Shown in pieces: positions 19,757 through 54,414 of a stretch of DNA of 56,152 nt. The position numbers and the translations under genes were made by a program. The notes below the pieces were generated by a model. That model saw only the letters and a program-made list of their open reading frames with translations. It had not been told where the DNA came from and did no database searches. Position 1 is the first letter of the stretch; every line of letters starts with the position of its first letter. The stretch covers positions 1-56,152 of the forward strand of contig DATAOR010000019.1 of NCBI GenBank assembly GCA_036265635.1, read 5' to 3'. The DNA is from Gemmatimonadales bacterium (lineage in GTDB: Bacteria; Gemmatimonadota; Gemmatimonadetes; Gemmatimonadales; GWC2-71-9).

Positions 19757-20666
19757 CGCCCGCCTGGAAGATCCGGAGGTGCGCGCTCCGCGCGCGGGGA
19801 TTCGCGGCCACTTCGCCGGGCGCCGCCACGATCGGCTTCCGGGTCACCAGCCGGCCGAGCGGCCGGCCGCGGCAGGTGCAGACCGGCTGCCCCGGGGGGC
19901 AGACGCAGGCGCTGGCCCAGTCCCGGAACGCCTGCTTGACCAGCCGGTCCTCGCCCGAATGGTAGGTGATGACGGCCAGGCGCCCACCCGGCACGAGCGC
20001 ATCCCGCAGGGCCGGGAGCGCCGCCTCCAGCCCGGCCAGCTCGTCGTTAACGGCAATCCGTACCGCCTGAAACAACCGGGCGAAATCACCGGGCCCGGCC
20101 CGGGGCCCGAGGGTGGCTCGAATGGCGTTGACCAAGTCATCGCTGATGGCGAACGGGGCCCGACCTCGCCGGCGGACGATCTCGCGGGCGAGCCGCCGGC
20201 CTTGCCGCTCGTCGCCGTACTGGTAGAAGATATGGCCCAGCTCGGTCTCGTCCGCCTGGTTCAGCAAGTCGGCCGCTGACCGCTCGCCCGCGCCCATCCG
20301 CATGTCCAGCGGCGCGCCCGGTCGGAAAGTAAATCCCCGGTCGGTCTCATCCAATTGGCGTGACGATACGCCCAGATCGAGCAGGATGAAGTCGGGCTGC
20401 CAGGCCGCGACGGCTGCGAGCGCCTCGGGCGAGGCATACACGGCGTTGAGGTAGTGGATGCGTTCGGCGCCCAGCCGGGCCCGACTCACTGCCAGCGCCG
20501 CCGGGTCGCGGTCGATGCCAAGCACCTCGGCCCCGGCCTGACGAAGGCCCTCCGCGTGGCCGCCGTCCCCCAGGGTCGCGTCCACGGCGCGCCGGGCGCC
20601 CGCGGCGGCCGCCAGGACGGCGTCGAGCAAGACCGGGACGTGCACGGGCGTGGCGGGATCGGTCAT
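19746..20666 (-). CDS. rsmH: 16S rRNA m4C1402 methyltransferase RsmH (MraW)
   Basis: The track ORF (to 20795, TTG start) runs through tRNA-Asp, giving the GFEPR translation artefact. I trimmed it to the ATG at 20666. The product starts MTDPATPVHVPVLLDAVL and contains DATLGDGGHAE and LLDLGVSSRQLD. Confidence 0.9.
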   Translation of the reverse strand: MTDPATPVHVPVLLDAVLAAAAGARRAVDATLGDGGHAEGLRQAGAEVLGIDRDPAALAVSRARLGAERIHYLNAVYASPEALAAVAAWQPDFILLDLGVSSRQLDETDRGFTFRPGAPLDMRMGAGERSAADLLNQADETELGHIFYQYGDERQGRRLAREIVRRRGRAPFAISDDLVNAIRATLGPRAGPGDFARLFQAVRIAVNDELAGLEAALPALRDALVPGGRLAVITYHSGEDRLVKQAFRDWASACVCPPGQPVCTCRGRPLGRLVTRKPIVAAPGEVAANPRARSAHLRIFQAGDAS

Positions 20667-20684
20667 CGATTCCGAGGCATGGGC

Positions 20685-20716
20685 GGAAACGAAACACCCC
20701 GTCCGCAGGGACGGGG
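20685..20716 (-). terminator. Intrinsic terminator-like hairpin downstream of tRNA-Asp
   Basis: The minus strand reads CCCCGTCC-ctgc-GGACGGGG (perfect 8-bp GC stem, 4-nt loop), followed at once by TGTTTCGTTTCC. Confidence 0.5.
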
Positions 20717-20736
20717 TGGCACGTTGACAGAGGGAA

Positions 20737-20811
20737 CGGGGCTGACGGGGCTCGAACCCGCGACCTCCGCAGTGACAGTGCGGCACTCTAACCAAGCTGA
20801 GCTACAGCCCC
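20737..20811 (-). tRNA. tRNA-Asp (anticodon GTC)
   Basis: The minus strand reads GGGGCTGTAGCTCAGCTTGGTTAGAGTGCCGCACTGTCACTGCGGAGGTCGCGGGTTCGAGCCCCGTCAGCCCCG. It folds as a cloverleaf with 7-bp acceptor stem, anticodon arm CCGCA/CTGTCAC/TGCGG, T-loop GGTTCGAGCC and discriminator G. CCA is not encoded. Confidence 0.9.
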
Positions 20812-23985: not shown

Positions 23986-24855
23986 CTAGGAGAGCAGGCT
24001 GCGCGGGACCTCACCCCCGGCCGCGGCCACATCCAGCATCTCTTTGCACCGCTTGGCCCACGGGTTGAACTTGTTGGCCTTGTGACCTTCGGCCCAGGTC
24101 TGCATCGCCTCGTCCCGGCGCCCGGCGAACCAGAGGGCGCGACCCAGCTCGAAGTGGGCCTCGATCAGGTTGGGCCCCAGTTTGAGGGTATTCCGGAAGA
24201 AAGTCTGGGCATCCTCGTACATCTCGCGCTCCAGGTATACCAGTCCCAGATAATAGTGGGCATAGAGCGTGGCCTTGCGGTCGTTGTCCAGCCGGATGGC
24301 CTTGGAGAGATGCTCTATGGCCTCCCCGAAGATCCGCTTCTTCAGGCAGATATAGCCCACGTTGATCCGGGCTAGGGCGTTGGCCGGCTCCTTCATGAGC
24401 ACCCGCGAGAAGGTGCCGAGGGCGTCATCGTAATCCTCGTGAAGCATCTGGGCCCAACCCAGGAGTGACTGCGCCTGGACGTCCCCCGGAGAGAGCCCCA
24501 GCGCCTTGTCCAGGGCCTGGATCGCCCCGTCGTAATCGCCCAGCGAGATCAGGCTCCAGCCCTTCTCGATGTAGGTGGAGGCACCGAGGTGATCGGCGTG
24601 GATGGCGGGCCGCGCCCCGGTGAACTGCGGCGCCGTGGCCGGCCCCGCCGCGTGGGCTTGCTTGTAGCGCTCGACCAGTCCCCGGATCTCCTCCTTCATC
24701 TGCCCCAGGTCGGTCAGTGCGCCATCTACCCGCTTGAAGAGAGCGATGATGTCGCGCTTGACCGCTTCCCGGTCGCCGGGCTGCGACGCCGCGGTCAGCC
24801 GCGACTCGATCTCCTGAAACTGCCCCCGGAGGGTGCCGATCAGCGGCTCGCTCAT
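23986..24855 (-). CDS. Coiled-coil + TPR protein, last gene of the che/mgl cluster
   Basis: The track ORF is over-extended across cheW. I trimmed it to the ATG at 24855, which forms an ATGA overlap with the cheW stop. The product is 289 aa with an N-terminal coiled coil and then TPR repeats (YDGAIQALDKALGLSPGD, YDDALGTFSRVLMKEPAN, and others). Confidence 0.75.
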   Translation of the reverse strand: MSEPLIGTLRGQFQEIESRLTAASQPGDREAVKRDIIALFKRVDGALTDLGQMKEEIRGLVERYKQAHAAGPATAPQFTGARPAIHADHLGASTYIEKGWSLISLGDYDGAIQALDKALGLSPGDVQAQSLLGWAQMLHEDYDDALGTFSRVLMKEPANALARINVGYICLKKRIFGEAIEHLSKAIRLDNDRKATLYAHYYLGLVYLEREMYEDAQTFFRNTLKLGPNLIEAHFELGRALWFAGRRDEAMQTWAEGHKANKFNPWAKRCKEMLDVAAAGGEVPRSLLS

Positions 24856-25334
24856 GCCGGCCCTCCCAGCTGGGCGAGCGCAAGGCGTTCGGTCGAGGTC
24901 AGGAGCTTCCTCGCGTTGAGAATGATGATGGTCCGCTCGGGCCGGGTGACAATCCCGGCGATGTAGCCCGCCGCCAGCCCGCTCACCATGGGTCCCGGGG
25001 CGGTGATGGTCGTACTGGCCACCCGGAGGACCTCGCGCACCTGATCCACCAGGACGCCTATCCGCTGGTCGTCCAGATCCACGATCATCAGCCGGGTCTC
25101 CTCCCGCAGCCCCGCCGGCAGCTCGAAGCGCTTGCGCAAGTCCACCACTGGCACGACCCCGCCCTCGTAGGGGACGACCCCCTCGAGAAACGGCGGGGCC
25201 TGCGGCAACGGCGCGGGGGCGATGTGGCGCAGGATCCGCTCCACCTGCAGGATGTCCAGGGCGAATTCCTGGGGCCCGACCCGGAAGCACACCAGCTGGA
25301 CCTGATCCGCCATGTCTGTGGCCGCGCCGGTCAT
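24852..25334 (-). CDS. cheW: Chemotaxis coupling protein CheW
   Basis: 160 aa with a typical CheW fold signature (LVCFRVGPQEFALDILQVERI...VVPVVDLRKRF...IGVLVDQVREV...IILNARKLL). Confidence 0.88.
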   Translation of the reverse strand: MTGAATDMADQVQLVCFRVGPQEFALDILQVERILRHIAPAPLPQAPPFLEGVVPYEGGVVPVVDLRKRFELPAGLREETRLMIVDLDDQRIGVLVDQVREVLRVASTTITAPGPMVSGLAAGYIAGIVTRPERTIIILNARKLLTSTERLALAQLGGPA

Positions 25335-25756
25335 CGCGTCTCCTCTCCGATCCGTGCGCCGAGGGCGGTGAAATCGAGCAGCGGGACCAGTCCCGCCTCG
25401 GTGCGGGCGACCGCGTCGGCGCAGGGGAGCCCGGTGCCGGGGGCCAGCCGAAGACCGGTCCGGTAGAGAATGGTGTCCGCCGACTCAACCTCGAGGCACA
25501 CTCGCCGGCCGGCCAGCTCGACCAGGATACCCACCTCGCTGGGCCGGGCCGGACAGCTCCCGCCGTCGAGCAGCGCCCCGAGATGCACCAGCGGGGTGAT
25601 CCGCTCCCGGACCAGCGCCACCCCCCGCACCGCCGCGTCCCGAGCGGGCACCGGGTACGCCAGGCCCGGGTCGAGTACCTCGACCACCCGGGTGAGCGGC
25701 AGGCCGACCAGGTGCTCCCCGGCCCGGACCACCAGGTAGCCGGCCTCGGCCGTCAC
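25331..25756 (-). CDS. Divergent CheW-like protein
   Basis: 141 aa with a CheW-like pattern ([21 protein letters not shown]...[19 protein letters not shown]...[11 protein letters not shown]...LVPLLDF). It has 4-nt overlaps on both sides. Confidence 0.65.
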
Positions 25757-26826
25757 GCGGCCGCCATCCGGGACAGTTCCTGCGAGACCCGCGCGGCCAC
25801 CTCGCCGATGGGGAGCACATGGCGGACTCCACCCGACTGCAGCGCGGCGCCGGGCATGCCGTAAATAGTGGCGGTCTCCCGATCCTGCGCGATGCCGATG
25901 CCGCCGGCGTCGTGCATCGCGCGGAGCCCTTCGGCACCGTCGCGGCCCAGGCCGGTGAGCACTACCCCGACGGCGCGGGCGCCGAAGACGCGGGCGACGC
26001 TGCGAAACAGCGGATCAGCGGCCGGCCGCACTCCCCACACGGTCGGCGTCTGGTCCAGCTCGAGCCGAGGCCCGTCGGCCGCGAGCGCCACCCGCATGTG
26101 AAAATCGCCGGGAGCGACATAGGCCGTATCGGCCACGATCGGGACGCCGTGCTCGGCCTCGACCACCTGGAACCGACTCTGCGACGCCAGCCGCTCGGCC
26201 AGGCTACGGGTGAATTTGGGCGGCATGTGCTGCACGATCAGCACCGCGGCCTGGTGGCCGGTGGTGAGCTGCGGCACCACTTCCGCCAGCGCCCGCGGCC
26301 CCCCGGTCGAGGCCGCGATGGCGACGACTTGCCGGGCCCGTCCTGGCAGCGCGAACAACGCCGGCGCGGCGGTCGGCCGGGCGGGTCGCGCCAGCACCGG
26401 CATCCGGAGAATCGCCGCGCTGCGCACCGTGCGCAGCGTGCCCAGCACCCGGTGACGGAAGCGGACCATCGACTGGGTGCTCCGGTCCTCTTCCTTGGGC
26501 ACCAGGTCCACGGCCCCGAGCTCGAGCGCCCGGATGGCGGCCCCCGTCCCGGGGCCGGCGTACGAGCTGACCACGACGATGGGCCGGGGCGCCTCGGACA
26601 TGATGTAGCCGATCGCGCCCAGCCCATCGAGCTCGGGCATCTCCAGGTCCATCAACACCACGTCGGGCTCGAGCTCGTGGACTTTCTGCAGCGCATCGAG
26701 CCCGTTCCGGGCGGTCCCCACCGCGCGGAACTCGCCGCTCCCGTCCACCACGTCGGACAACAGCCGCCGGAAGAAGGCGCTGTCGTCCACGATGAGGACC
26801 GTCTGCGTCTCAGAGGGTCGCGACAC
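25753..26826 (-). CDS. cheB: Protein-glutamate methylesterase/response regulator CheB
   Basis: 357 aa. The REC domain has [11 protein letters not shown]...[13 protein letters not shown]. The methylesterase domain has the triad context [14 protein letters not shown] and GLGRDGAEG. Confidence 0.93.
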
Positions 26827-27295
26827 CGTGCGCTACCGACGAGATCTCGACGCGACCATCGGCGGCCCACAGCCGGACGGTCCGGCCGTAGTCGCCTCCG
26901 GTAGCCTCCCCGACCAGCGGCAAGCCGGCGGCATGCAGCATCTGGCGGCAGGCGACCACGTTGCGCTCGCCCATCTGGATGGTCCCCGGCGCGGCCAGGC
27001 TGGCGAACATGCTGGCGCCGCCGACCAGCCGGGCCGTCATCCGGCGCGCGCTCCCGCCGCGCTCGGCCATCAGCTCGAGCAGCTTCGGCACCGCCGTCTG
27101 GGGAAACTTGGCCGGATTGTTGTCCTTCCGGCTCAACGCCGGGGACGGCAGCAGCACGTGGGCCAGCCCCACCACCTTGCTCGCCGGATCGTGCAGCAGG
27201 ATGGCCACGCAGCTCCCCAGGCCCACGGTCATCAGCACGTCGTCGCCGCAGCCGGCCCGCATGTCGGCCACCCGGACCACGATCTCGCCCGTCAC
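26810..27295 (-). CDS. cheD: Chemoreceptor glutamine deamidase CheD
   Basis: 161 aa with [10 protein letters not shown] (catalytic Cys context), GLAHVLLP and ERNV. Confidence 0.9.
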
Positions 27296-28110
27296 GGCGC
27301 CCTCCGGTAGATCCGCTCTCGCGGGTCGACCATGGCGAGTCGCTCGCGGGCCGCACCCAACAGGGTCTCCACCTTGCCCAGGACGAGGAACCCCCCGGGC
27401 GCCAACGCATCGGCGAACCGGGTGAACAGCCGCTCCTGCATCGGCCGATCGAAGTAGATCACCACGTTGCGGCAGAGGATGAGGTCGTAGTCGGTCCGCG
27501 GCGGCGGCTCCGCGTTCAGGTCGTGGAACCGTACCCCGACGCGTCGACGGACCGGCTCGGTCACCCGGCGCAGCTCGCCCGCGTCCTCGAAGTAGCCGGC
27601 AGCCAGCTCGGCCGGCATCTCGGTCAGTCCCTCGCGCCGGTAGCTGGCCGCCCGGGCCCGCTCGAGGCTCACCCGATCGATGTCGGTCGCGTCGACCGAC
27701 AAGCGGGCCAGCTCACCCCCGCGCCCCAGCCCGTCGAGATAGGCGGCCACCAGGATGGCCAGGGTATAGGGCTCCTCACCCGACGCACAGCCGGCGCTCC
27801 AGGCCCTGACCTCGGTCCGGGGCCGGTCGAGCAGCGCGGGCAGGACCGTCTGTCGCACCGCCTGCCAGGTTTCGGCGTTGCGGTAGAACCGGGTCACGTT
27901 GATGGTGAGGGCGTCACGAAGCCGCTCGCACTCGAGCGGTGAACGGGTCAGCACCGCCCGGTAGTCATCGTAGCTGTGTACCCCGCAAGCCCGCATGCGC
28001 ACCGCGATCCGCCGGCGGATGCACTTGTCCTTGTAGGCCTGGACGGTGAACCCGCCGGACCGGGCGATCTCCTGCGCCAGGGCCGCGAAGGCCGGATCGT
28101 CGGAGCTCAC
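27292..28110 (-). CDS. cheR: Chemotaxis protein methyltransferase CheR
   Basis: 272 aa with FYRN, the SAM-binding motif AWSAGCASGEEPYTLA and LILCRNVVIYF. Confidence 0.9.
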   Translation of the reverse strand: MSSDDPAFAALAQEIARSGGFTVQAYKDKCIRRRIAVRMRACGVHSYDDYRAVLTRSPLECERLRDALTINVTRFYRNAETWQAVRQTVLPALLDRPRTEVRAWSAGCASGEEPYTLAILVAAYLDGLGRGGELARLSVDATDIDRVSLERARAASYRREGLTEMPAELAAGYFEDAGELRRVTEPVRRRVGVRFHDLNAEPPPRTDYDLILCRNVVIYFDRPMQERLFTRFADALAPGGFLVLGKVETLLGAARERLAMVDPRERIYRRAP

Positions 28111-29732
28111 GGGGTCATGTCCAGCATCTCGAGGTTGGCCTGGGCCAGCTGATGACCCGGATTGAGCTCGATGGCACGGCTCCAGCTCTCCCGTGCCGCC
28201 GCCTTGTCGCGTCGCTTGTAGGCAATGTTGCCGAGCTTGAAGTAGAGGTCGTCGCCCAGATCGGGCGCCAGCTTGGCGGCCCGGTCGTACGCCTCGCGCG
28301 CGTCGTCGTACCGGCCGTGCCGATAGAGTATGTCCGCCAGGTTCTTCGAGATCTGGGGCAGGCCGGGATCCTCGGCCAGGGCCACGCGGAGGGAGGCCTC
28401 GGCGCCCTGGGCATCACCCTTGAGCTCCAGCAGCACGGCCAGGTTGTTCTGGAGGACGGCGTGGCCGGGATAGGATTCGGCGCCGGTCCGGGCCGCCCGA
28501 AGGGCCCCGGCCCCGTCGTCCATCCCGACGCTGACCAGGGTGGCCGCCCAGTACCACAAGGCCGGGACCGGCCGGTCTCCCAGCAGCTCCATGGTGCGGG
28601 CCAGCCGGCCCTGAGCGACCGCAAACTCCCCGCGCTTGAGCGCGATGACGCTCCAGCCCAGCATGATCCTGGCATCGTCGCGGGCCCGGGCCGCGGCCTC
28701 GCCGTAGGCGGCTTCCGCTTCGTCCAGCCGGCCCAGCCGCTCGAGGGCGTACCCCAGGTTGTGGAGTGCCGCGGGCTTGCCGCCGGCGCCTCCGCCGGCC
28801 TGGGTCAGGGCCGAGACCGCCTCGTCCCATCGCCCCTGGCGGATGGCGATCAGCCCGAGATAGAAGGGTGCGCTGGCGTCGGCCGGGCGGAGATCGGTCA
28901 CCCGGCGGAACTCCCGCAGGCCCTCATCGAGCATGCCCGCCTTGTAGAAGGCGATGCCGAGGTTCCGGTGCTCGTCCACCCGGCTGTCGTTCACCCTGGG
29001 GGCCGCTGCCGCCGAGGTACCGACCCGGTGGGCGAATCCGGCCGTGATGAGACCGTACAGCGCCTTGCCGACCTCGAACTCGATCAGCCCGGACGCGTCG
29101 ATCACCGCCTGCACATCGCGGCTCCCATCCAGCAGCGGGACCAGCCGCTGCTGCTCGGCGGACAGCTCCGGCGCGGACTCCCCGATGTGGGCGGGATCGA
29201 CCGCGAAGATCAGGTCGAACGAGGGGATCTTCTTCTCGATCAGGCTCCACTCGTCGACCCGCCGGGCGCCTTCCAGCAGGAGGAACTCGGGATTGATCCG
29301 GACCAGGAAATCTTCCTGTTCCGGCCGGACGCCGGCCTCGAAATTGAACGTGCCCGAGGTCCAGGTGAACAGGTAATAGACGGCCTCCTCGATCTGGAGC
29401 CGCATGTAGCTCTCCAGCTCCTCCCGACTCAGGTGACCCAGCTCGACCAGGATCTCGCCCAGCTTGGACTCCCGTTCCCCGCCCTGCCGCGCGATGGCCT
29501 GCTCGAGCTGCTCGGCCGAGATCCGGCCGTTCCGCACCAGGATATCGCCCAGGCGGTCGCGACGGTTGACGATGGCGGAGTAGACGATGTGGCCTTCGTC
29601 CAGGTAGATCGTCCCGAAGTTGTGCCGGTCGGCCAGCGCCAGACACCCCGTCCGCCGGCCCAGGAACAGCAGCTGGATGACGTCCGGCAGGCTGGCCTCC
29701 TTGAGGCTGCCCTTGATGGCCATCAGCGCCAT
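28107..29732 (-). CDS. PATAN (DUF4388) domain protein with MshEN-like helical insert and C-terminal TPR repeats
   Basis: The track ORF (to 30542) is over-extended. I trimmed it to the ATG at 29732; an alternative ATG at 29723 forms TGATG with the upstream stop. The product starts MALMAIKGSLKEASLPDVIQLLFLGRRTGCLAL (DUF4388 signature), then tandem RLGDILV.../KLGEILV... helices, then more than 8 TPRs. Confidence 0.75.
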   Translation of the reverse strand: MALMAIKGSLKEASLPDVIQLLFLGRRTGCLALADRHNFGTIYLDEGHIVYSAIVNRRDRLGDILVRNGRISAEQLEQAIARQGGERESKLGEILVELGHLSREELESYMRLQIEEAVYYLFTWTSGTFNFEAGVRPEQEDFLVRINPEFLLLEGARRVDEWSLIEKKIPSFDLIFAVDPAHIGESAPELSAEQQRLVPLLDGSRDVQAVIDASGLIEFEVGKALYGLITAGFAHRVGTSAAAAPRVNDSRVDEHRNLGIAFYKAGMLDEGLREFRRVTDLRPADASAPFYLGLIAIRQGRWDEAVSALTQAGGGAGGKPAALHNLGYALERLGRLDEAEAAYGEAAARARDDARIMLGWSVIALKRGEFAVAQGRLARTMELLGDRPVPALWYWAATLVSVGMDDGAGALRAARTGAESYPGHAVLQNNLAVLLELKGDAQGAEASLRVALAEDPGLPQISKNLADILYRHGRYDDAREAYDRAAKLAPDLGDDLYFKLGNIAYKRRDKAAARESWSRAIELNPGHQLAQANLEMLDMTP

Positions 29733-32017
29733 TCCTCCAGCAGCCGGTCGCCGACTTCGGGCCATTCCCAGACCATCTTCTCGCGACTCCGGGCCGCAGC
29801 GGGCCCGGCACCGAGCACGCCGCTGCTGCGGGCCTCCCGCTTGGGCGCGACCGGCGTCGGGTCCAGCACTTCGCGGGCGAGGGCCGCGTCCGGCGTCCTC
29901 CCCCGGAGGGCGGATTCGTCGATGACCCGCTGGAGCAACGCCTGAGCGGCCCGGAGCGAGTCGGCCGGCCGTGCGGCGATGTAGCCGACCAGCTCGGGGT
30001 CGGTGATCGCCAGCTTGGCCTCGAGGTCCCGCGCCAGGACGCAGGCCCGCACCGCAGGATCCGCCGGTGGCAGCTCGACCACCAGGCCGCCCTCCAGCCG
30101 CGAGCGCAGCCTCGGCTCGACCCCGCGCAGCTCTGCTGGCGGCACCGCCGAAGCGAACACCAGCTGGTGGCCGGCGTCGATCAGGGCGTTGAACAGGACA
30201 AACAGCTCGTCCTGCGTCCGATCGGTGGCCGCGATCAGGTGGACGTCGTCCAGCAGGAACGTCGTCGCGCGGCGGTAGCGGGCCCGCCACCGGGCCACCG
30301 CGTCCCGATCGATGGCCGCGATCAGCTCGCCGGTGAATTCCGGAGCGCTCAGACAGGCGACCGTCTGACCCTCCCGCACCAGTGCGTTGCCGATGGCGTG
30401 GAGCAGGTGGGTCTTCCCCACCGCCGCGCCGCCGATCAGCACCAGCGGGTTGTACCGGTCTCCGGGACTGGCGATGACGGCCCTGGCCGCCTCCAGCACC
30501 ACCCGGTTGCCCGGGGTCTCCAGCAGCGTGTCGAGCTGCCACAGGGGCGACGGCGCCGGCAGCGGGTGACCGTCCTCGCGTGCCTGTCGGACGACCTCCA
30601 CGGCGGCGGCCACGTCGCCGGGATCACGGAACACGGCCAGCCCGGGAAGGTCGGGCGACAGCGCCGCGGCCTCGGCCTGGAGCGCCTGCAGCCGCTCGAC
30701 CTCCTCCTCGAACTCGCGCAGGGCGCGCTCGGGGTCATTCACCATGTCCTGCTGCAGCAAGGCCTCGAGCGTCGCGGTGCGGTAGCCCTCGCCCTGCCAG
30801 CGGAGCACGGCGGCATTCACCCGCGCCCGCCAGGTATCGACCTGCTGGGCCACGGTGGCGGCGATCTCGGACAGGAAATCGGCGAACTCGTCGGGCGCGC
30901 GGCTGAGCACCTCGGCTGGCGCAGCGGCCAGGGCACCCTCCCGCCGGCCGGTGACGTGCTCGGACGCGTTCTGCCGGCTGCCCGGTTCCTCCGCCCCAGC
31001 CGGCTGGGGCCGAACTGCGGGCTCAGCCCTCGCCGACTGGGCCGCGGGGACGGCGGGCGGTGCGGCGCGCGAAGCGCCCACCGGGGTGACGCCTTCGACC
31101 GCTCTCGCCGCCGGCCGGGCCGAGACGGTCTGCCGTTCAGCCGGGGGACCTTCCGCCACCCGCCCAGGCGTCGCTCCAGCCGCCGGTGTCGCCTCACCCG
31201 CTCGATCCTCGCCCGCCGGGCCGGGCGGGCGGGGGCGACCGTTGGCCTCGGCCGACCCGCCACTCTCGGCCGACGTCGCCGGGGGGTCATCCCCGTCCGG
31301 CTCGCCGCCGACCAGCATCCGTGCCTGGCCCGGCACGAGGGGAGCGTCGCTCACCGCCTGAAAGGCGATCAGGCGATTGAGCGCGCCGAGCAGCTCCCGG
31401 ACGTTGTCGATGTCGAGCGCCGCCACCGCCTCCAGCACGCCCGCGCCGAAGCTGGCCCGCCGTTCCTCCGCCTTCCGCCGCAGGATGGCGACCCGGGTCT
31501 CGTAGTCCGGCGCCCCGACGTCGATGATCAGCCCGCCCGCGAAGCGGCGGATCAGGCGCTCGTCCAGCGCCTCGATCTCGGCGGGCGGACGGTCACTGGT
31601 CAGCACGATCTGCCGGCTCGCGGTCTGCAGCGCATCGGTCAGCCGGAGCAGCTCGGCCTGCATCTCACGTCGGTGGGTCAGGAACTGGACGTCGTCCACC
31701 AGCAGGAGGTCCACGTCGAGGAACCGCTTGCGGTAGGCCTCGCCCTGGCCGGCGGCGATGGCGGCGTGGAAGGCCTCGACGAACTCGTCGAGGGTGAGGT
31801 ACTCCACCACCAGCCGCGGGTTGATCGCCCGGGCGGCGTGCCCGATGGCCATGAGCAGATGGGTCTTGCCCAGGCCGGGGCGGGCATCCACGAACAACGG
31901 GTTGTAGACCGTGCCGGGCGACTCGGCGACGGCCTTGGCCGCGGTGACGGCCAGCCGGTTCGAGGCCCCCACGACCAGGGTATCGAACCGGTGGAGCGGA
32001 TTCAGGCTGACGGTCAC
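29723..32017 (-). CDS. Tandem DnaA-domain-III (Hda-like) AAA+ ATPase, no DnaA domains I or IV
   Basis: 764 aa with a GTG start that forms a GTGA overlap with the mglA stop. Module 1 (aa 1-225) is collinear with DnaA domain III: NPLHRFDTLVVGASNRLA, PGLGKTHLL, LLLVDDVQF, IVLTSDRPP, RLIRRFAGGL, NVRELLGALNRL. Module 2 (aa approx. 488-705) has PLWQLDTLLETPGNRVV, GGAAVGKTHLLHAIGN, FLLDDVHLI, LVFASAVPP, RLRSRLEGGL. The two are joined by a Pro/Ala-rich linker and a helical region. Confidence 0.85.
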   Translation of the reverse strand: MTVSLNPLHRFDTLVVGASNRLAVTAAKAVAESPGTVYNPLFVDARPGLGKTHLLMAIGHAARAINPRLVVEYLTLDEFVEAFHAAIAAGQGEAYRKRFLDVDLLLVDDVQFLTHRREMQAELLRLTDALQTASRQIVLTSDRPPAEIEALDERLIRRFAGGLIIDVGAPDYETRVAILRRKAEERRASFGAGVLEAVAALDIDNVRELLGALNRLIAFQAVSDAPLVPGQARMLVGGEPDGDDPPATSAESGGSAEANGRPRPPGPAGEDRAGEATPAAGATPGRVAEGPPAERQTVSARPAARAVEGVTPVGASRAAPPAVPAAQSARAEPAVRPQPAGAEEPGSRQNASEHVTGRREGALAAAPAEVLSRAPDEFADFLSEIAATVAQQVDTWRARVNAAVLRWQGEGYRTATLEALLQQDMVNDPERALREFEEEVERLQALQAEAAALSPDLPGLAVFRDPGDVAAAVEVVRQAREDGHPLPAPSPLWQLDTLLETPGNRVVLEAARAVIASPGDRYNPLVLIGGAAVGKTHLLHAIGNALVREGQTVACLSAPEFTGELIAAIDRDAVARWRARYRRATTFLLDDVHLIAATDRTQDELFVLFNALIDAGHQLVFASAVPPAELRGVEPRLRSRLEGGLVVELPPADPAVRACVLARDLEAKLAITDPELVGYIAARPADSLRAAQALLQRVIDESALRGRTPDAALAREVLDPTPVAPKREARSSGVLGAGPAAARSREKMVWEWPEVGDRLLEEWR

Positions 32018-32616
32018 GCGACCGGCGCTCCAACCGCGAGCCGCCTGAGCACCAGCTCGGAGATGCCGCGGAGGGTCTCGAACACCCCGGTGCCATGGAG
32101 CGCGTCGGCGGCATAGCTGGGCACGGCTCGAAAGTTCAGCGCGTCGTCCATCTCGTCCTGCGACAGGATCAGATCGGCCGGGAGATCCTGCTTGTTGTAC
32201 TGGAACACCACCGGCAGCTGGCGGACGTCCACGCCCTGGGACAGCAGGTTGTCCTGCAGGTTCTGCAGGCTCTCCAGATTGTCGTCGTACCGCCGGGCCT
32301 GACTGTCACCGACGAAGACGACGCCATCGGCGCCCTGCAGCACCAGCTTGCGGGTGGCGTTGTAGTAGCTCTGGCCGGGTACGGTATAGAGCTGGAACTT
32401 GGTGGTGAACCCCGAGATGCTGCCCAGCTCGAGGGGGAGGAAATCGAAGAACAGGGTCCGATCCGTTTGGGTCGCCAGCGAGACCATGCGGCCGCGGCGG
32501 CTCTCGGGCACCCGGCCGTAGACATACTGCAGGTTGGTCGTCTTGCCGGACCGGCCCGGCCCGTAGTAGACGATCTTGCAGGTGATCTCGCGCGACGTGA
32601 AGTTGACCAGGGACAT
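32014..32616 (-). CDS. mglA: Ras-like polarity GTPase MglA
   Basis: 200 aa starting MSLVNFTSREITCKIVYYGPGRSGKTTNLQYVY. It has the MglA-specific TVPGQ in place of DxxG, the intrinsic Arg context TDRTLFFDFLP, and NKQD. Confidence 0.92.
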   Translation of the reverse strand: MSLVNFTSREITCKIVYYGPGRSGKTTNLQYVYGRVPESRRGRMVSLATQTDRTLFFDFLPLELGSISGFTTKFQLYTVPGQSYYNATRKLVLQGADGVVFVGDSQARRYDDNLESLQNLQDNLLSQGVDVRQLPVVFQYNKQDLPADLILSQDEMDDALNFRAVPSYAADALHGTGVFETLRGISELVLRRLAVGAPVA

Positions 32617-32621
32617 GCCGG

Positions 32622-33083
32622 TTACCGTCCGAAGAGCGCTTTAAGGCTCGCGTTGAGCTCGGTCTCGAAGTGTTCCGCCAGCGGCGGAGCCGTGGCCGGC
32701 TCTCGCGGCGCGGCGACCGCCAGCTGGCCCACCATCTGATCGAAGAAGAGCCGGACCAGGCCGACCGACGTCTCCGGGCCGAACACCACCAGACCGATCC
32801 AGCGACCGCGCGGAGTGGTGAAACCCGCCAGCAGGCAACTCTGCCGTTGCCCGTTGTGGACCAGGGCCTCGAACCGGGCGGCGCCCATCAGGCGGGCCAG
32901 CTCCTCGGTCGAGGCCACGATGCCCGCCCCCAGCGCCGCCGCCGTCATCACGTCGAGCGACCGGCCGAAGCCGTGCTGGGCCACCACCTGGCCGGAGGAC
33001 GTCATGATCAGAGCCAGCCGGGCCGCGCTCTCGGCCAGAAAGGTCTCGAGCGGCGCCGCTACCCAGGGCTCGAGCGCCTTCAT
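32622..33083 (-). CDS. mglB: Roadblock/LC7 protein MglB (MglA GAP)
   Basis: 153 aa with a Roadblock pattern (ARLALIMTSSGQVVAQHG...AAALGAGIVAS...GLVVFGPETSVGLVRL). It lies immediately upstream of mglA, as in the mglBA operon. Confidence 0.8.
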   Translation of the reverse strand: MKALEPWVAAPLETFLAESAARLALIMTSSGQVVAQHGFGRSLDVMTAAALGAGIVASTEELARLMGAARFEALVHNGQRQSCLLAGFTTPRGRWIGLVVFGPETSVGLVRLFFDQMVGQLAVAAPREPATAPPLAEHFETELNASLKALFGR

Positions 33084-33448
33084 CAGGCCAGCCGCCCGGC
33101 AGCCCCGATCATCTCCAGGCGGGCCAGCCCGAGATTGGCCTCGGGGCCTACCACCGCGACCAGCACCAGATCGTCGGGGCCCGGGGCGGCCAGGACGCTG
33201 CCGGACGCGCCGCGAAGCTGGATGAAGGCCGGCGGGCGGAGGCCGGCGCTCTCGGCGGTGCGGGCCAGCCTTCCCACCAGGCTGCCCGCCAGAGCGGCCG
33301 CAGCCTGCCCGTCCACGCCGTCCATCAGCTGGTCGGCCACCACCAGGCCGTCCGCCGCCGCGACCACGAGGGCGCCGCGCACGCCGGGGACCCGGGTCAC
33401 CCGGTCGAGCGCTGTCTGGGTCGCGGTCACGTCTGGCGCTCCAGCCAT
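33083..33448 (-). CDS. Second Roadblock/LC7 protein (MglB paralogue / MglC-like)
   Basis: The track ORF is over-extended. I trimmed it to the ATG at 33448; an alternative GTG at 33430 forms GTGA with the upstream stop. The product is 121 aa: RVPGVRGALVVAAADGLVVAD...LVLVAVVGPEANLGLARLEM. It shares a TGATG junction with mglB. Confidence 0.65.
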   Translation of the reverse strand: MAGAPDVTATQTALDRVTRVPGVRGALVVAAADGLVVADQLMDGVDGQAAAALAGSLVGRLARTAESAGLRPPAFIQLRGASGSVLAAPGPDDLVLVAVVGPEANLGLARLEMIGAAGRLA

Positions 33449-34329
33449 TCCGCCGCCGCGCGCGCGGCCCGCTCGGCCAGCAGCATCACCCGACCGACCG
33501 GCAGCGTCGTGGGCCGGGCCGCCAGCACCACGGTGTCGGCGGTGGCCGGGGCCAGCGCCAGGTGACCATCGGGCGACTCCACCGCGATGACCTCCCAGGT
33601 CCCCAGTCCGAGCAGCCGCGTGGCCCGGGCCGCCTCGCGTGACACGCCGGCGAGCTGCGCCGCTACCCGATCCCCCGCCGCGGTCTCGTCCCCCTCGAGC
33701 CGCCCGCCGAGGCGCATTCCACCGGTGTCCACCAGCAGCAGACCTGCCTCCGCCCCGACGGCACCGAAAGGGCCAGCGGGACCGGCCGGGGGGGGGGCCG
33801 CAGCGGCCGCCGCTGTGTCCTCCCGCCGAGACGTGCCGCGGCCCGGGTCGCGGCCCCAATCTGCCGGACCGTCCGGCGGAGCCGCCGCCGCCGCCTCGCC
33901 CGTACCGGGCGCATCGCGGTGGGCCCGGCGAGCCTCCGGGCCCAGCCGTACGAGGGCCTGGCGAATCGAGGCATCGTCCGGTTCGACCTCGAGCGCACGC
34001 TCGAGGTGGGCCACGGCCGCCCCGGCGTCCCCGGCCCGGTAGTAGAGGAACGCGATCCCCTTGAGCGCACTCGTCCGCATCGGGTCCAGCTGCAGCGCGG
34101 AGGTCCAGGCCTCGAACGCGCCGGCCAGGTCGCCCTGGTCGCTCAGCACCCGCGCCATCAGATCGTGGGCATCCGCCAGCGAGGGATACCGGGTCAGGCC
34201 ACCCCGGGCCACCTTGTAGGCCGGCTCCAGCTGGCCCCGGCGGCGCAACGCCTCGGCCAGCTCCAGGAACGCCAGGCTCCCCGGCTCCTCGGCCAGGCGG
34301 GCGGTGAGGGCCCGGATGTCTTCAGTCAC
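33427..34329 (-). CDS. TPR + disordered linker + Roadblock/LC7-like fusion protein
   Basis: 300 aa with N-terminal TPRs (LELAEALRRRGQLEPAYKVARGGL..., AGAFEAWTSALQLDP) and an Ala/Pro linker. The C-terminal Roadblock-like domain reads AGLLLVDTGGMRLGG...WEVIAVESPDGHLALAPATADTVVLAARPTTLPVGRV. Confidence 0.65.
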   Translation of the reverse strand: MTEDIRALTARLAEEPGSLAFLELAEALRRRGQLEPAYKVARGGLTRYPSLADAHDLMARVLSDQGDLAGAFEAWTSALQLDPMRTSALKGIAFLYYRAGDAGAAVAHLERALEVEPDDASIRQALVRLGPEARRAHRDAPGTGEAAAAAPPDGPADWGRDPGRGTSRREDTAAAAAAPPPAGPAGPFGAVGAEAGLLLVDTGGMRLGGRLEGDETAAGDRVAAQLAGVSREAARATRLLGLGTWEVIAVESPDGHLALAPATADTVVLAARPTTLPVGRVMLLAERAARAAAEWLERQT

Positions 34330-35371
34330 GGTAACGCTCCAGCTCCTTCTCGATCGTTTCTACCGCATGCTGCAGCCGAGCCACCGCGGCGGCCTCGGCA
34401 TCCTCGCCCGGAGTGCGATCGGCCAGCCGGGTCCACGAGGACCACAGGTCGAGCGCCTCGGCAAACCGTCCCAGGCCGGCGTAGCACAGGCCAAGCAGCC
34501 GGCGGGCCTCCGGCATCAGCGGATCCGCTCGCAGGACCTCCTCGAGCGCGCCGGCCGCCAAGTCGTACTGGCCACCGGCCAGCGCTTCGCGGGCGGGCAC
34601 GAGCAGCGCGGCATAGTCGCGGCCGGGCTCCAGCTCCTCGCCAGGATGGGCCGGGTCGTCCAGCACGACGATGCCGGCATTGGTGAGCCCGTAGACGGTG
34701 CGCGCCACCTCGAATTCCGACCGACCCAGGATCTCGGCGAGGGAATGCAGGTCGCGGCTTCCGTCCACCGCCGCCAGCACCTCCCACTCGAACGGCACCA
34801 AATCCAGGATCTCGGACCCCTGGGCTTCCGGCGGCGGCAGCCGGGGCACCAGCCGGAGATGCGAGACCTTGGAGCCGATCCGGGACCATTCGTCGATCCG
34901 CCGGGCGGCCTCCATCAGCAGCGCCTCGGTGGGCACCCGCACCGGTGCCGCGACCGCGGCGTGGTACGCCCCGCCCTCCTCGAACCGGAAATACCCCTCC
35001 GACCAGCGCAGCAGATCGAACACCGTTTCCTCGATCTGGGCCTTGAGCTGCCGATCGAGCTCGCGCCGGGAGATCACGCCGAGCTCCACCAGGATGTCGC
35101 CCAGCCGCCGTCCATCGCCGCCGGCCTGCAGTCCCAGGGCGCGATCGAGGTCGGTCCCGGTGATCTTGCCGACCCGCACCAGGCGGGTACCCAGGGGCTG
35201 GGGGTCGTCGCCCATCGCCGCCGCGACCACGCCGCCCCGATCGAAGCACACGGTGCCCGCGGTTTGCCGCAGCTCCGACGTCACCCGGAGCACCCCGCTC
35301 TTCCGGCCCAGGTCGAGCAGCTGGAAGACGTCCTGGATGTGCAGGTCCTTGAGCGGTCCCTCGAGCGCCAT
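34322..35371 (-). CDS. PATAN (DUF4388) domain protein with MshEN-like helical insert and C-terminal TPR
   Basis: 349 aa starting MALEGPLKDLHIQDVFQLLDLGRKSGVLRV (DUF4388 signature), then tandem PLGTRLV.../RLGDILV... helices and C-terminal TPR-like repeats. Confidence 0.75.
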   Translation of the reverse strand: MALEGPLKDLHIQDVFQLLDLGRKSGVLRVTSELRQTAGTVCFDRGGVVAAAMGDDPQPLGTRLVRVGKITGTDLDRALGLQAGGDGRRLGDILVELGVISRRELDRQLKAQIEETVFDLLRWSEGYFRFEEGGAYHAAVAAPVRVPTEALLMEAARRIDEWSRIGSKVSHLRLVPRLPPPEAQGSEILDLVPFEWEVLAAVDGSRDLHSLAEILGRSEFEVARTVYGLTNAGIVVLDDPAHPGEELEPGRDYAALLVPAREALAGGQYDLAAGALEEVLRADPLMPEARRLLGLCYAGLGRFAEALDLWSSWTRLADRTPGEDAEAAAVARLQHAVETIEKELERYRD

Positions 35372-35373
35372 CG

Positions 35374-38049
35374 TCAGGCCACCGAGGCCGCGAAGATGTG
35401 CTGCAGGTCTCGGGCGGACCGTGCCCGGGTGCGGGCCTGGCTGGCGTACGGTCCGCCGGGATCCAGCTGCACCACCCGCTCCCAGGCCTGCACCGCCTGG
35501 TCGAACTGCCGCTGGCGTGCCAGGGCGGCCCCCTCGTAGTACAGCGCGCCGGCGTGCTCGGGATCGAACCGGAGCACCCGCTCGAACGCCTCCAGCGCCT
35601 GGGTGGTGCGCCCGTCCTCGAGCAGGGCCCGGCCCAGCGCGGTCAGCGCCTCGAGCTCATAGGGATCGACCTCGAGCAGCCGGACCAGCACCGCCACGGC
35701 GCCGCGTGGCGATTCGGTCCGGCACAAAAGGTCGGCCAGCGCGATGGCCGCCCCGCTGTAGGTCGGCAGCAGGTCCAGCGCCCGCTCGTATGCCGCCCGG
35801 GCGGCGGCGCTGTTGCCCCGCTCATCCTCGAGGCCGCCGAGCTCGAACCAGACCCGGACCAGCGACGGGTCGAGCTGGAGGGCGGCGTTGAACGCGGCCA
35901 GGGCGGCGGCGCGATCGCCCAGCCGGGCTGAGACCTGGGCCTGAAGATGGAGCAGGTCGGGCCGCCCGGGCGCCAGCGCCTGGGCTTCCCGAATGCAGTC
36001 GAGCGCCCCGAGGGCATCGCTGACCGCCAGCCGGACGCGGGCCCGTGCCACCAGGACTTCCACGTCGCCCCGGACGCGACGGGCCAGCTCGTCCGCCAGC
36101 GGTGCCGCGTCACCCGCCCAGCCCAGCGCGAGCAGGGCCCGGATCTCGCCCAGGGTGGCGTCGGGGTCGTCGGGGGTCGCCTGCCGGGCGGCCCGGTAGC
36201 GCTCCAGCGCTTCACCGTAGAGCCCTCGCTTGGCGAAGATGTCACCCAGCAGTACCGCGGTGGCCCCAGCGGCGGCCCCCCGCGCGGCCGCCCGGCTCAG
36301 CTCGGCCGACGCGAGGTCCAGCAGCCCCTTGGCGATGTAGTCGCGCGCCAGGTCGAGGGCATCGCCCGCCGCTCCCGGGCTGGGCGACGCGGGCGGGGCC
36401 AGCTCCGCGAACAGCTGATCGAGCGCCGGTGCCTCGAAGGCGAACTCCCCGGCCAGCTGGTCGCCAGTGGTCTCGGCGGCCAGCTCCGGGGCGATCGCGA
36501 TGGTGGGGTCCTCGTACTGCAGGTCAATGGTGAGGGAGAACTTCTGCGGCACGTAGAGCGGCTCGAGCTCCAGCGCCTGGCGGGTCTCCCGGAGGGCACC
36601 GTCGAAATCGCCCAGCTGGCTCAGCACGAAGCTGAGGTTGTAGCGGGCCGCCGCCATCGTCGGGTCGGCATCCACCGCCCGGGCGAAGGCGTTGCGGGCG
36701 TCGTCGAACCTGCGGAGCTCCATCAGCACCAGGCCGACCCCGTTCCAGGCCACGGCGCTGCCGCTCTGCTCGCTCAGCGCCGCCTGGTATTCCTCGAGCG
36801 CCTGGCGCGGCTGTCGCCGCTGCAGCAAGAGCAGACCGAGGTTGAGTCGGGCGGCGAACAGGGGCCGGTCGCCCGCCAGCGCGCGGCGGAACGCGGCCAC
36901 GGCCTCCTCCCCGGCCTCGCTCGCCCGCACGACGCCCAGATTGTTCCAGGCCAGTTGGTATCCCGGGTCCACCGCGACGGCCTGCTGGTACGATGCCATC
37001 GCCTCGTTCCGCCGCCCCGCCTGGTGGAGGCAGACCCCGCGCTCGTTCCACAGCTTGGGCGAGTCGGCGTGCTCCCGGATCAGCGCGTCGTACAGCTCGA
37101 GCGCGTCCGGCAGCTCGCGACGGAGCAGCCGGACCTCGGCCATCGCCTGAACGGTGAGCCGGCGGTCTTCGCCGCCGTCGAGCGCCAGGCCATATTCGCG
37201 CAGGGCCTCATCGTAGAGACCCTTCTGCCGGAAGGCGAGGCCCAGGTTGTAGTGGGCCAGGGCGCCGCCCTCGACCACCTGGGGCCGCCGTCCGGGCCGC
37301 GTGGCGCCGTGGTCGCCGCCCGGCGCATAGCGCTCGAGGGCGAGGTTGGCCTGGGCTCGCGCCAGCGTCGGATTGAGCTTGATCGCCCGCTTGGTCGCCT
37401 CGCGGGCCTCCTCGTGGCGGCCCATGTCGCCGTAGACGAACGCCAGCAGGTAGTGCGCTTCGGCGTAGTCCGGGTTCCGGGCGATGGCCTCGCGCAGGGC
37501 CTCAAGCGCCGGCTCGTTCAACCCCCGGTTGTACAGCACCTCCCCATGGTAGAACCGGGCGACGGCGCTGGTGGGGTCGTGAGCGCAGGCCCGGTCCAGC
37601 CAGTCGGTGGCCGTGTCGAGATTGCCCCGCGCCTTCTCGGCCAGTCCGAGCTGGAGCATCGCCGGCACGTCGCCCGGGGCCCACGCCAGCAGGGCCTGGA
37701 ACTCGGCAATGGCCTCGGCATGACGGCCCAGGGCGGCGTGGGCCCGGGCCAGCTCCCAACGGGCGTCCCGGTCCTCGGGGTGCCGGCGGACGCGTTCCCG
37801 GAGGGCAGTGATCCGGCGATCGTAGTGCCCGCTCTCCCGGTAGGCGATGTCGAGGTTGCTCTGGGCCACCTGCATGCGGGGATCCAGCTCGAGCGCCCGG
37901 ACGAACTCCGCGATGGCGTCCTCGATCAGCCCCTTCTGGTAGTACAGCACGCCCAGGTTGTTGTGGGCGCCCGCGTCGGAAGGATCGATCCGACGGGCAA
38001 ACGAGCGGAGGACGGCGAGATCGCGGTCCGACAGCACGGGACCGGGCAT
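35374..38049 (-). CDS. Large multi-TPR scaffold protein
   Basis: 891 aa that is almost entirely TPR repeats (AHNNLGVLYYQKGLIEDAIAEFVRALELDP and about 20 similar units). There is no signal peptide or TM. Confidence 0.85.
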   Translation of the reverse strand: MPGPVLSDRDLAVLRSFARRIDPSDAGAHNNLGVLYYQKGLIEDAIAEFVRALELDPRMQVAQSNLDIAYRESGHYDRRITALRERVRRHPEDRDARWELARAHAALGRHAEAIAEFQALLAWAPGDVPAMLQLGLAEKARGNLDTATDWLDRACAHDPTSAVARFYHGEVLYNRGLNEPALEALREAIARNPDYAEAHYLLAFVYGDMGRHEEAREATKRAIKLNPTLARAQANLALERYAPGGDHGATRPGRRPQVVEGGALAHYNLGLAFRQKGLYDEALREYGLALDGGEDRRLTVQAMAEVRLLRRELPDALELYDALIREHADSPKLWNERGVCLHQAGRRNEAMASYQQAVAVDPGYQLAWNNLGVVRASEAGEEAVAAFRRALAGDRPLFAARLNLGLLLLQRRQPRQALEEYQAALSEQSGSAVAWNGVGLVLMELRRFDDARNAFARAVDADPTMAAARYNLSFVLSQLGDFDGALRETRQALELEPLYVPQKFSLTIDLQYEDPTIAIAPELAAETTGDQLAGEFAFEAPALDQLFAELAPPASPSPGAAGDALDLARDYIAKGLLDLASAELSRAAARGAAAGATAVLLGDIFAKRGLYGEALERYRAARQATPDDPDATLGEIRALLALGWAGDAAPLADELARRVRGDVEVLVARARVRLAVSDALGALDCIREAQALAPGRPDLLHLQAQVSARLGDRAAALAAFNAALQLDPSLVRVWFELGGLEDERGNSAAARAAYERALDLLPTYSGAAIALADLLCRTESPRGAVAVLVRLLEVDPYELEALTALGRALLEDGRTTQALEAFERVLRFDPEHAGALYYEGAALARQRQFDQAVQAWERVVQLDPGGPYASQARTRARSARDLQHIFAASVA

Positions 38050-38053
38050 GGGA

Positions 38054-38674
38054 TCAGGTCAGGCGGATGGCGTCGAAGATGGCGCGCAACGAGGGCGTGT
38101 CCGGCAGCAGCAGGAAATGGCCGCTCAGCGGCTCGGAGGCACCCTCCACCCGGAAGGAGGTCTCGACGCAGAACACGAAGTCCCGATCGTGACCGAAATT
38201 GAGGTACGTCGTGGTCAGCACCGCCCCGCTCAGGTCGACCACCAGGCTCGGGACCGACGGGACCAGCATCATCCCCATGAAGTCGCTCAGGGCGTTCATG
38301 TAGGCGCTGGCCAGGATGTTGCCCGCCTCCTTGAGACCCGACTGCTCCATCTCGGTGAACGGGCCGGTGGTGCCGGGCTTGCGCCTGAGCAGGATATCGC
38401 AGAGCGCTCGGGCCGATCGCTCGGGAAACATCACCAGCGTCCGTCCCGTGAGGTCGCCCATCATGTGCATCAGTACTGCCGCCACCACCTCGTCGGGCGA
38501 GCCGACCAGGTCGGTGACTTCCTCCAGCGGCCGGACGTTGACCTCGGGCACGGCGATCATGATGGTGCGGTTGGTCATCTGCGACAGTGCCGTCGCCGCG
38601 TGGCCGGCGCCGATGTTGGCGACCTCACGCAGCGCGTCGAGCTGCAGCTCCTTCAGGCCCCGCGCGTCGTCCAT
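38054..38674 (-). CDS. cheC: CheY-P phosphatase CheC
   Basis: 206 aa with two CheC active-site repeats, LDALREVANIGAGHAATALS and QSGLKEAGNILASAYMNALS (ExxN). Confidence 0.85.
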   Translation of the reverse strand: MDDARGLKELQLDALREVANIGAGHAATALSQMTNRTIMIAVPEVNVRPLEEVTDLVGSPDEVVAAVLMHMMGDLTGRTLVMFPERSARALCDILLRRKPGTTGPFTEMEQSGLKEAGNILASAYMNALSDFMGMMLVPSVPSLVVDLSGAVLTTTYLNFGHDRDFVFCVETSFRVEGASEPLSGHFLLLPDTPSLRAIFDAIRLT

Positions 38675-38686
38675 GGGTTCCCTCTC

Positions 38687-40552: not shown

Positions 40553-40554
40553 CG

Positions 40555-40917: not shown

Positions 40918-40920
40918 AGA

Positions 40921-52429: not shown

Positions 52430-54414
<1,985 letters not shown>

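Follow-up and report, generated by a model that had tools for sequence, protein, structure and literature searches.

A candidate c-di-GMP-binding module of the MshEN_N type inserted in the PATAN domain of a TPR protein from a Gemmatimonadota Che/MglA operon

The PATAN domain of protein 1 contains an MshEN_N-type module

The 56,152-nucleotide (nt) stretch analyzed here (the window), which comes from a Gemmatimonadales bacterium (contig DATAOR010000019.1, assembly GCA_036265635.1), encodes on its minus strand a 541-amino acid (aa) protein composed of a PATAN (DUF4388) domain and tetratricopeptide repeats (TPR), hereafter protein 1. Inserted in the PATAN domain is a helical segment that is, by homology and with essential certainty, a module of the MshEN_N type, and comparison with tested domains together with a structural model makes it probable that this segment (residues 60-113) binds one monomer of c-di-GMP (cyclic dimeric GMP) in the manner of Vibrio cholerae MshE and Thermus PilF. 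The gene (28107..29732, minus strand) is an open reading frame (ORF) whose product matches Pfam DUF4388 and several TPR families, and which overlaps its neighbors through TGATG and GTGA. Translation of the minus strand between 29394 and 29555 yields RLGDILVRNGRISAEQLEQAIARQ-GGERES-KLGEILVELGHLSREELESYMRLQ, i.e. exactly the two tandem 24-residue motifs that a first-pass annotation of this DNA had pointed out. The departures from the published motif that it had listed are equally real: position 11 is not hydrophobic in either half (R70 in motif I and H100 in motif II), position 21 is I80 in motif I and M110 in motif II, copy II starts with K90 instead of Arg, and the spacer (GGERES, residues 84-89) counts six residues instead of five. 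Residue numbers follow the 541-aa frame and shift by -3 if translation starts at M4. The latter is probably the true start (at 29723), which would give a protein of 538 aa with the motif at 57-110, because the M4 ATG overlaps the stop codon of the upstream gene as TGATG, the sequence GGAGGA sits 9 nt before it, and 538 aa is the length of most database orthologs.

Profile searches define the relationships of the insert. Pfam DUF4388 (PF14332) matches protein 1 over residues 7-163 (E=9e-37, 126 bits), whereas the NCBIfam model NF053729 (53 positions, 'c-di-GMP_motif, MshE-related'), which has a curated cutoff of 38 bits, matches the full-length protein over residues 60-110 with 49.3 bits (E=3e-13). 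Lower-scoring NCBIfam matches were EpsG and NfrB, a glycosyltransferase activated by c-di-GMP, the latter in its MshEN region. When the insert was compared by phmmer with all Protein Data Bank (PDB) sequences, it matched MshEN-type domains only, those of Thermus PilF (2e-10, with GSPII-C as the best stretch), V. cholerae MshE (5HTL, 1.8e-6), Geobacter PilB (1e-4), and also Myxococcus PilB. The profile that the first-pass annotation had proposed as a check, T2SSE_N (PF05157), found no match in protein 1 even at E<=10. However, this model also misses genuine MshEN_N fragments of 57-59 residues (MshE 6-64, PilF 300-357 corresponding to GSPII-C, and Geobacter PilB 23-79), so the negative result is uninformative for a 53-residue unit, and we rejected PF05157 as a membership test for the insert. 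To judge from these searches, the model evidently needs the remainder of the N1 domain. Conversely, positions 49-75 of the Pfam DUF4388 model match the MshE fragment (25.0 bits, which equals the gathering cutoff) and the PilF and Geobacter PilB fragments, with the protein 1 insert (tested as 29394-29564) at 24.5 bits, and both halves of the protein 1 motif match this single hairpin. Judged by these profile matches, a hairpin of the MshEN kind is built into the Pfam model of PATAN, and this directly attests homology. The kinship of PATAN and MshEN_N is masked in domain databases, since PF14332 matches MshEN_N fragments and PF05157 does not.

A structural model is in line with this assignment. 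Residues 1-245 of protein 1 were modeled with AlphaFold2 from an alignment of 60 sequences (relatives 33-87% identical), giving a mean predicted local distance difference test (pLDDT) score of 91.6 and a predicted template modeling (pTM) score of 0.85. The PATAN core is modeled as strands 6-9, 29-35, 38-45, 48-54, and 128-133, with helices 15-24 and 148-168. Its N-terminal part (residues 5-59; 29556..29720, minus strand), covered by Pfam DUF4388, has block pLDDT values mostly between 82 and 97, and its C-terminal part (residues 114-168; 29229..29393, minus strand) comprises the last strand and helix. Between strands 48-54 and 128-133, and hence within the residues spanned by DUF4388, lie the four helices of the insert (block pLDDT 88-95). 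Motif I (residues 60-83; 29484..29555, minus strand) contains helices 61-67 and 73-85, and motif II (residues 90-113; 29394..29465, minus strand) contains helix 91-97 together with the first part of helix 103-122; the spacer between them (29466..29483, minus strand) is variable and of low information in the family alignment. When the model was searched against the PDB with Foldseek, the first-ranked match was c-di-GMP-bound MshE (5htl_B), with 56 columns, a root mean square deviation (rmsd) of 0.9 Å, 43% identity, and a probability of 1.00, followed by the PilF GSPII-B complexes (8pfa_A, 50 columns, 0.7 Å). The modeling and superposition suggested by the first-pass annotation thus predict a four-helix arrangement that superposes on the ligand-bound form of MshE, and its placement of the insert inside the PATAN/DUF4388 domain stands.

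This insert is the 'alpha-clip' of PATAN domains, two alpha-hairpins that form a four-helix bundle. As described by Han et al., the PATAN insertion consists of two repeated helix-hairpin units, the alpha-clip, also found at the N termini of GspE/PilB ATPases; the link to these N termini was drawn by Makarova et al. 2006, as that study is cited in bioRxiv 10.1101/2021.06.11.447907. The position that the first-pass annotation had equated with the alpha-helical insert reported for PATAN domains is indeed the place of the alpha-clip of Makarova et al. 2006.

The similarity of an amphipathic helical segment to MshEN_N could in principle be due to chance or to composition, considering that Leu/Glu/Arg-rich helices are common in a genome of 71% GC and that the Foldseek E-value of the MshE match is only 0.02. 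That value is modest only through the shortness of the match, and the statistics leave a coincidence a negligible probability. The half-motif pattern is expected 1.7e-5 times in a six-frame translation of the window and appeared in 0 of 200 shuffles, whereas it is observed three times, every one within the two PATAN genes of the window. Together with the NF053729 match, which recurs in 58 of 60 diverse members of the aligned family, and the superposition on MshE, these counts refute the coincidence, and a chance origin of the motif is excluded.

The remainder of protein 1 has a different make-up. Residues 174-239 (29016..29213, minus strand) are predicted by AlphaFold to form a small alpha/beta, winged-helix-like domain, for which Foldseek returned the winged-helix domain 2yu3 (residues ∼174-239, probability 0.99, 75 columns); the paralog, PATAN protein 2, likewise conserves this part. 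The TPR region (residues 247-540; 28113..28994, minus strand) is matched by Pfam TPR_2, TPR_16, TPR_1, and related families, and these repeats occupy the place in which the Pfam search found no Response_reg match. Besides the MshEN and 2yu3 matches, Foldseek gave low-probability matches to GATOR1 subunits. Nothing in the PDB resembled the PATAN core at E<=0.001, and the PATAN fold appears to be structurally uncharacterized.

Residues that contact c-di-GMP in tested domains are present and conserved in the insert

A profile match is a measure of homology and, to judge from the scores of tested domains, not of binding competence. Scored as fragments against NF053729, MshE (86.5 bits) and Geobacter PilB (68.9 bits) are followed by the protein 1 insert (54.3 bits) and the proven binder PilF GSPII-C (52.5 bits), but the non-binder PilF GSPII-A reaches 51.6 bits, as compared with 52.1 bits for the equally truncated insert. 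We therefore rejected the NF053729 score as evidence of binding and relied on a comparison at the level of residues.

In the structure of MshE, Wang et al. 2016 (PMC5013675) defined six contact positions per motif, namely 1, 2, 3, 17, 21, and 24 (R, L, G, L, L, and Q). R1 stacks on guanine, hydrophobic triangles are made by L2, L17, and L21, O6/N7 of guanine is read by the backbone amides of G3 and its successor in the chain, and Q24 binds the ribose-phosphate, whereas the central hydrophobic residues, position 11 included, only build the core of the bundle. At these positions, motif I of protein 1 has R-L-G-L-I-Q and motif II has K-L-G-L-M-Q. Nine of the 12 residues are identical to those of Wang et al., and the remaining three (I80, K90, and M110) are conservative. 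Both turn glycines are present as well. Glycine is also found at position 3 of both motifs (G62 and G92), a position of consequence because the substitutions G11L and G40I abolish binding in MshE and A41 obstructs the pocket in PilF GSPII-A.

As far as can be read from the sequences, each deviation in the protein 1 motif either occurs in domains proven to bind or is usual for the family. With K and L at position 1, PilF GSPII-B binds with a dissociation constant (KD) of 6 nM (PMC11731258). PilF GSPII-C, which binds c-di-GMP at about 0.3-0.46 μM (PMC11731258, PMC12002112), has K at position 11 of its first motif and one motif that begins with P, as shown by phmmer alignments, in which Geobacter PilB and PilF GSPII-C likewise have spacers longer than the five residues of MshE. 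The non-binder PilF GSPII-A differs at H33, S39, A41, I55, I59, and R62 (PMC12002112), and its polar and glycine defects are all absent from the protein 1 insert.

These residues are also conserved. Orthologs of protein 1 were collected by scanning a collection of contigs with a diverse alignment, which left 80 loci, every one from a close ortholog in the Gemmatimonadota (with Myxococcales as the label of one record), and the resulting set comprises 81 Gemmatimonadota orthologs with 67-100% identity to protein 1. All 81 share R60, G62, D63, L76, Q83, G92, L106, and Q113 without exception, and at position 90 there is K in 62 orthologs and R in the other 19. For the wider family, a HMMER scan of 1.84 billion cluster representatives found 12,523 relatives of residues 1-165, the best 150 of which (171 PATAN copies, in clusters at 50% identity) were aligned; this sample is biased toward sequences that resemble the query. 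Among the 171 copies, position 1 is R in 79% for motif I and R or K in 61 and 12%, respectively, for motif II. Position 3 is G in 88% of both motifs, position 17 is L in 78% (motif I) and 80% (motif II), and position 24 is Q in 68% (motif I) and 90% (motif II). Contact positions carry 2.2-3.7 bits of information vs ∼1 bit at neighboring exposed positions, and position 11 varies in each half, so that polar residues such as R70 and H100 are usual there in this family. In the second PATAN copies of two-domain relatives (e.g. P0216/250-405), the hydrophobic pattern is kept, whereas R1, G3, and Q24 of the first half are lost. Because these degenerate copies keep the pattern without the polar residues, the latter are not needed for the fold. 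Two apparent fusions, P0025 (PATAN-TPR-CheR) and P0071 (DnaA-PATAN-TPR), were set aside as frameshifted gene calls with out-of-frame Arg/Pro-rich stretches; both are public metagenome gene calls and could mislead surveys of domain architecture.

Binding of c-di-GMP weighed against other functions of the insert

Several observations weigh against binding of c-di-GMP by protein 1. Position 21 is I and M, not L, and position 11 is R and H, and I19R belongs to the set of changes given for XpsE, a non-binder. Even with an ideal consensus, binding fails if neighboring structure intrudes (PMC12002112); the module of protein 1 is embedded in another domain, and the PATAN structure beside it may block the binding face. 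As described above, a non-binder scores like the insert in NF053729. No c-di-GMP binding test of any PATAN protein was found in the open literature searched. The window contains no gene for GGDEF, EAL, or HD-GYP proteins, and c-di-GMP synthesis is known for the phylum only, from a GGDEF/HD-GYP hybrid of Gemmatimonas aurantiaca.

These points bear chiefly on the alternative that the insert has the MshEN_N fold but binds no nucleotide, which we consider rather unlikely. This alternative draws on PilF GSPII-A, which matches the insert in profile score and in which restoring the consensus does not bring binding back (PMC12002112). In the literature, PilB1 and PilC are bound by PATAN regulators, and discussion of the alpha-clip is confined to a role as an interaction element. 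Moreover, the 2016 census counted three MshEN proteins in Synechocystis, a number that can hardly accommodate the six PatA-type regulators of this organism. However, PilF GSPII-A has Q at position 24 of neither motif, and its motif II is without R at position 1 and G at position 3, whereas protein 1 has all of these or conservative equivalents. Helix 1 of the insert is predicted to begin at residue 61, after a coil (55-60), and to be free of the N-capped extension that blocks PilF GSPII-A (PMC12002112). The fold survives without the polar residues in degenerate PATAN copies. R60, G62, D63, Q83, G92, and Q113 are invariant across the orthologs, and their MshE equivalents make specific contacts to guanine and ribose-phosphate (PMC5013675).

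It is very improbable that the module binds another cyclic dinucleotide instead, either 3'3'-cyclic GMP-AMP (cGAMP) or the c-di-AMP made by CdaA. For this it can be said that MshEN_N binds cGAMP weakly (KD of 0.33 mM), that a cdaA gene is present at 50463-51350, and that no GGDEF gene was seen in the window. On the other hand, the affinity of MshEN for cGAMP is about 600-fold below that for c-di-GMP, and there is no detectable binding of c-di-AMP by MshEN, in which O6/N7 is read by backbone amides of Gly/Asp and these amides clash with the amino group of adenine. The residues that read O6/N7 are conserved in protein 1 (G62-D63 and G92-E93). The cdaA gene (DAC and CdaA_N domains) follows folP (Pterin_bind) and ftsH in the region 50463-54414 on the minus strand. 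The cyclic-dinucleotide synthase encoded in the window is thus of the c-di-AMP type, a ligand that MshEN-type sites do not bind.

Binding of c-di-GMP, which we favor, can be described at the level of residues by homology with MshE. R60 and K90 would stack on the two guanines, and the hydrophobic triangles would be formed by L61 with L106 and M110, and by L91 with L76 and I80. The backbone amides of G62/D63 and G92/E93 would read O6/N7 of guanine, and Q83 and Q113 would hold the ribose-phosphate. Because helix 4 (103-122) is continuous through the conserved QIEEAVY up to residue 122, after which the next PATAN strand follows, the ligand signal could reach the PATAN core and then the winged-helix-like and TPR parts. 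Binding might in this way alter the partners held by the PATAN-TPR scaffold within the Che/MglA operon, obvious candidates being the translationally coupled CheR and the DnaA-like ATPase.

Relationship to known MshEN and PATAN proteins

Protein 1 shares with the MshEN_N domains of V. cholerae MshE (5HTL; PMC5013675) and PilF GSPII-B/C (8PKZ/8PQU; PMC11731258) the tandem 24-residue motifs with their conserved contacts, a four-helix bundle on which the model superposes at 0.7-0.9 Å, and a match to NF053729 above cutoff. In MshE and PilF, the module is N-terminal on an ATPase of type II secretion systems (T2SS) or type IV pili (T4P), whereas in protein 1 it is inserted in a PATAN domain. Unlike MshE/PilB/GspE, protein 1 has neither an MshEN_C subdomain nor a C-terminal T2SSE ATPase, and it differs from MshE in its spacer (6 vs 5), in position 11, which is polar in both halves, and in position 21 (I and M). 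PilF GSPII-A (6EJF; PMC12002112) has the same fold as protein 1 and scores in the same NF053729 range, illustrating that the motif alone is insufficient for binding. In this domain, however, H33, S39, A41, R62, and an N-capped helix 1 that extends into the site are found, whereas in protein 1 the key positions are intact and helix 1 is predicted to start from residue 61.

With the alpha-clip-containing PATAN proteins of Synechocystis (PixG, PixE, and LsiR), protein 1 shares the domain, the place of the insert, and location in a chemosensory cluster. PatA-type response regulators have a C-terminal CheY-like receiver, whereas protein 1 has a winged-helix-like domain and TPR, and is therefore not of the PatA type. 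The setting also differs, the host here belonging to the Gemmatimonadota and the cluster including MglA/MglB-like genes and a gene for a DnaA-like ATPase.

The closest precedents are in Myxococcus xanthus. Wang et al. 2016 (PMC5013675) lists architectures that consist of MshEN_N only and, in Supplementary Table 3 and an alignment, names MXAN_3211 and MXAN_1145 as predicted c-di-GMP-binding MshEN proteins. The motif there begins near residue 50-58 (about 50 in MXAN_3211), and a PATAN-type segment follows it (...ILDAFHWDGDFLF), as in protein 1. A 2024 preprint (bioRxiv 10.1101/2024.03.11.584430) refers to MXAN_3211 as a PATAN-domain protein and connects it with the MglA/SgmX polarity network. 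The motifs of MXAN_3211 start with F-F-G and F-L-G, as compared with R-L-G and K-L-G in protein 1, which is closer to the consensus, and the phylum and downstream domains differ. The sequence feature is therefore recurrent and already catalogued, as a known alpha-clip and as PATAN-embedded motifs listed among predicted binders in 2016, and the novelty that the first-pass annotation had attached to it was estimated too high. No paper stating a link between PATAN and c-di-GMP explicitly was found in the open literature searched.

The value of protein 1 is that of a well-documented candidate for biochemistry. If binding is true, it would be among the first PATAN-domain proteins identified as a c-di-GMP receptor. 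PATAN regulators steer T4P polarity and phototaxis in cyanobacteria and are tied to the MglA network in myxobacteria, and c-di-GMP affects pilus polarity and phototaxis-type behaviors through receptors that are incompletely identified. Binding would also name a concrete input for a conserved, unstudied Che/MglA/DnaA-like operon of the Gemmatimonadota.

Genomic context of protein 1

Protein 1 is encoded within a cluster of genes that all lie on the minus strand. Their order is cheW, cheY, cheA, cheC, a gene for an 891-aa TPR protein, PATAN protein 2, a TPR-Roadblock protein, a Roadblock protein, an MglA-like GTPase, a tandem DnaA-domain-III ATPase, PATAN-TPR protein 1, cheR, cheD, cheB, cheW, and a gene for a TPR protein, followed by the division and cell wall (dcw) cluster from mraW to ftsZ. 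Several of these genes are translationally coupled. Immediately downstream of the protein 1 gene is cheR (27292..28110; Pfam CheR and CheR_N), which overlaps it as GTGA, and immediately upstream is the gene for the tandem DnaA-domain-III AAA+ protein (29723..32017; two matches to the Bac_DnaA ATPase), which overlaps it as TGATG; each adjacency is found in 79/81 loci. Further upstream are the genes for the MglA-like small GTPase (32014..32616; Arf/small_GTP matches) and two Roadblock/MglB-like proteins (32622-33083 and 33083-34329; Robl_LC7 matches), upstream of the MglA-like gene in a conserved order. The head of the cluster comprises cheC (38054-38674), cheA (38687-40678), cheY (40555-40917), and cheW (41039-41521), in an order like that of the ortholog locus used for comparison, and downstream of cheR are cheD (26810-27295), cheB (25753-26826), and cheW (24852-25334). 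Protein 1 itself had no exact entry in the contig collection. Synteny was compared in detail with a Pfam-annotated ortholog locus encoding an 85%-identical protein (L001), and from the large TPR protein to cheB the order is identical in every ortholog locus of sufficient length.

That c-di-GMP is an input to the MglA/Che module, as the first-pass annotation had proposed, is a reasonable inference from the conserved structure of this operon only. It is a further and distinctly unlikely step that two paralogous scaffolds of PATAN-MshEN_N type let c-di-GMP act directly on a circuit for chemosensing and Ras-like-GTPase polarity. Such a circuit would have nucleotide-bound protein 1 control the CheR methyltransferase and/or the tandem DnaA-derived ATPase. 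CheR proteins of the FrzF/WspC type have a built-in TPR, for which the TPR arm of protein 1 could stand in. If true, the level of a second messenger would be tied to adaptation and polarity, in an operon that lies beside the division and cell wall cluster throughout the Gemmatimonadota.

The second scaffold, PATAN protein 2 (34322..35371, minus strand; 349 aa; DUF4388 E=7e-31), is 39% identical to protein 1 over 234 residues. Its tandem motif, PLGTRLVRVGKITGTDLDRALGLQ-AGGDGR-RLGDILVELGVISRRELDRQLKAQ (35036-35197, residues 59-112), matches NF053729 over model positions 1-53/53 with 45.1 bits, and its second half fits the strict consensus of Wang et al. 2016. Because 42/55 orthologs have Arg, not Leu, at position 21 of motif I, PATAN protein 2 may bind c-di-GMP more weakly or not at all. 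No further PATAN or MshEN genes were found in the window, nor were genes for PilZ or PilB.

The chemosensory cluster as a whole (23986-41521) comprises cheA, three copies of cheW, cheY, cheC, cheD, cheR, and cheB, and no gene for a methyl-accepting chemotaxis protein was found in the window, although both receptor-modifying enzymes are encoded. The 29723-32017 ORF between the MglA-like and PATAN-TPR genes encodes 764 aa, with no family match outside its two ATPase modules. The chemosensory cluster lies upstream of, and directly adjoins, the dcw cluster, which runs from mraW (19746-20795) to ftsZ (5295-6491), an adjacency that is also found in the relative represented by L001. Finally, at the end of the chemosensory cluster a 500-aa ORF (23986-25488, minus strand) overlaps the real cheW (24852-25334; CheW E=2e-33) in another frame. 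The ortholog of the TPR protein in L001 has 295 aa, and the true TPR gene in the window therefore probably starts internally, near 24870.

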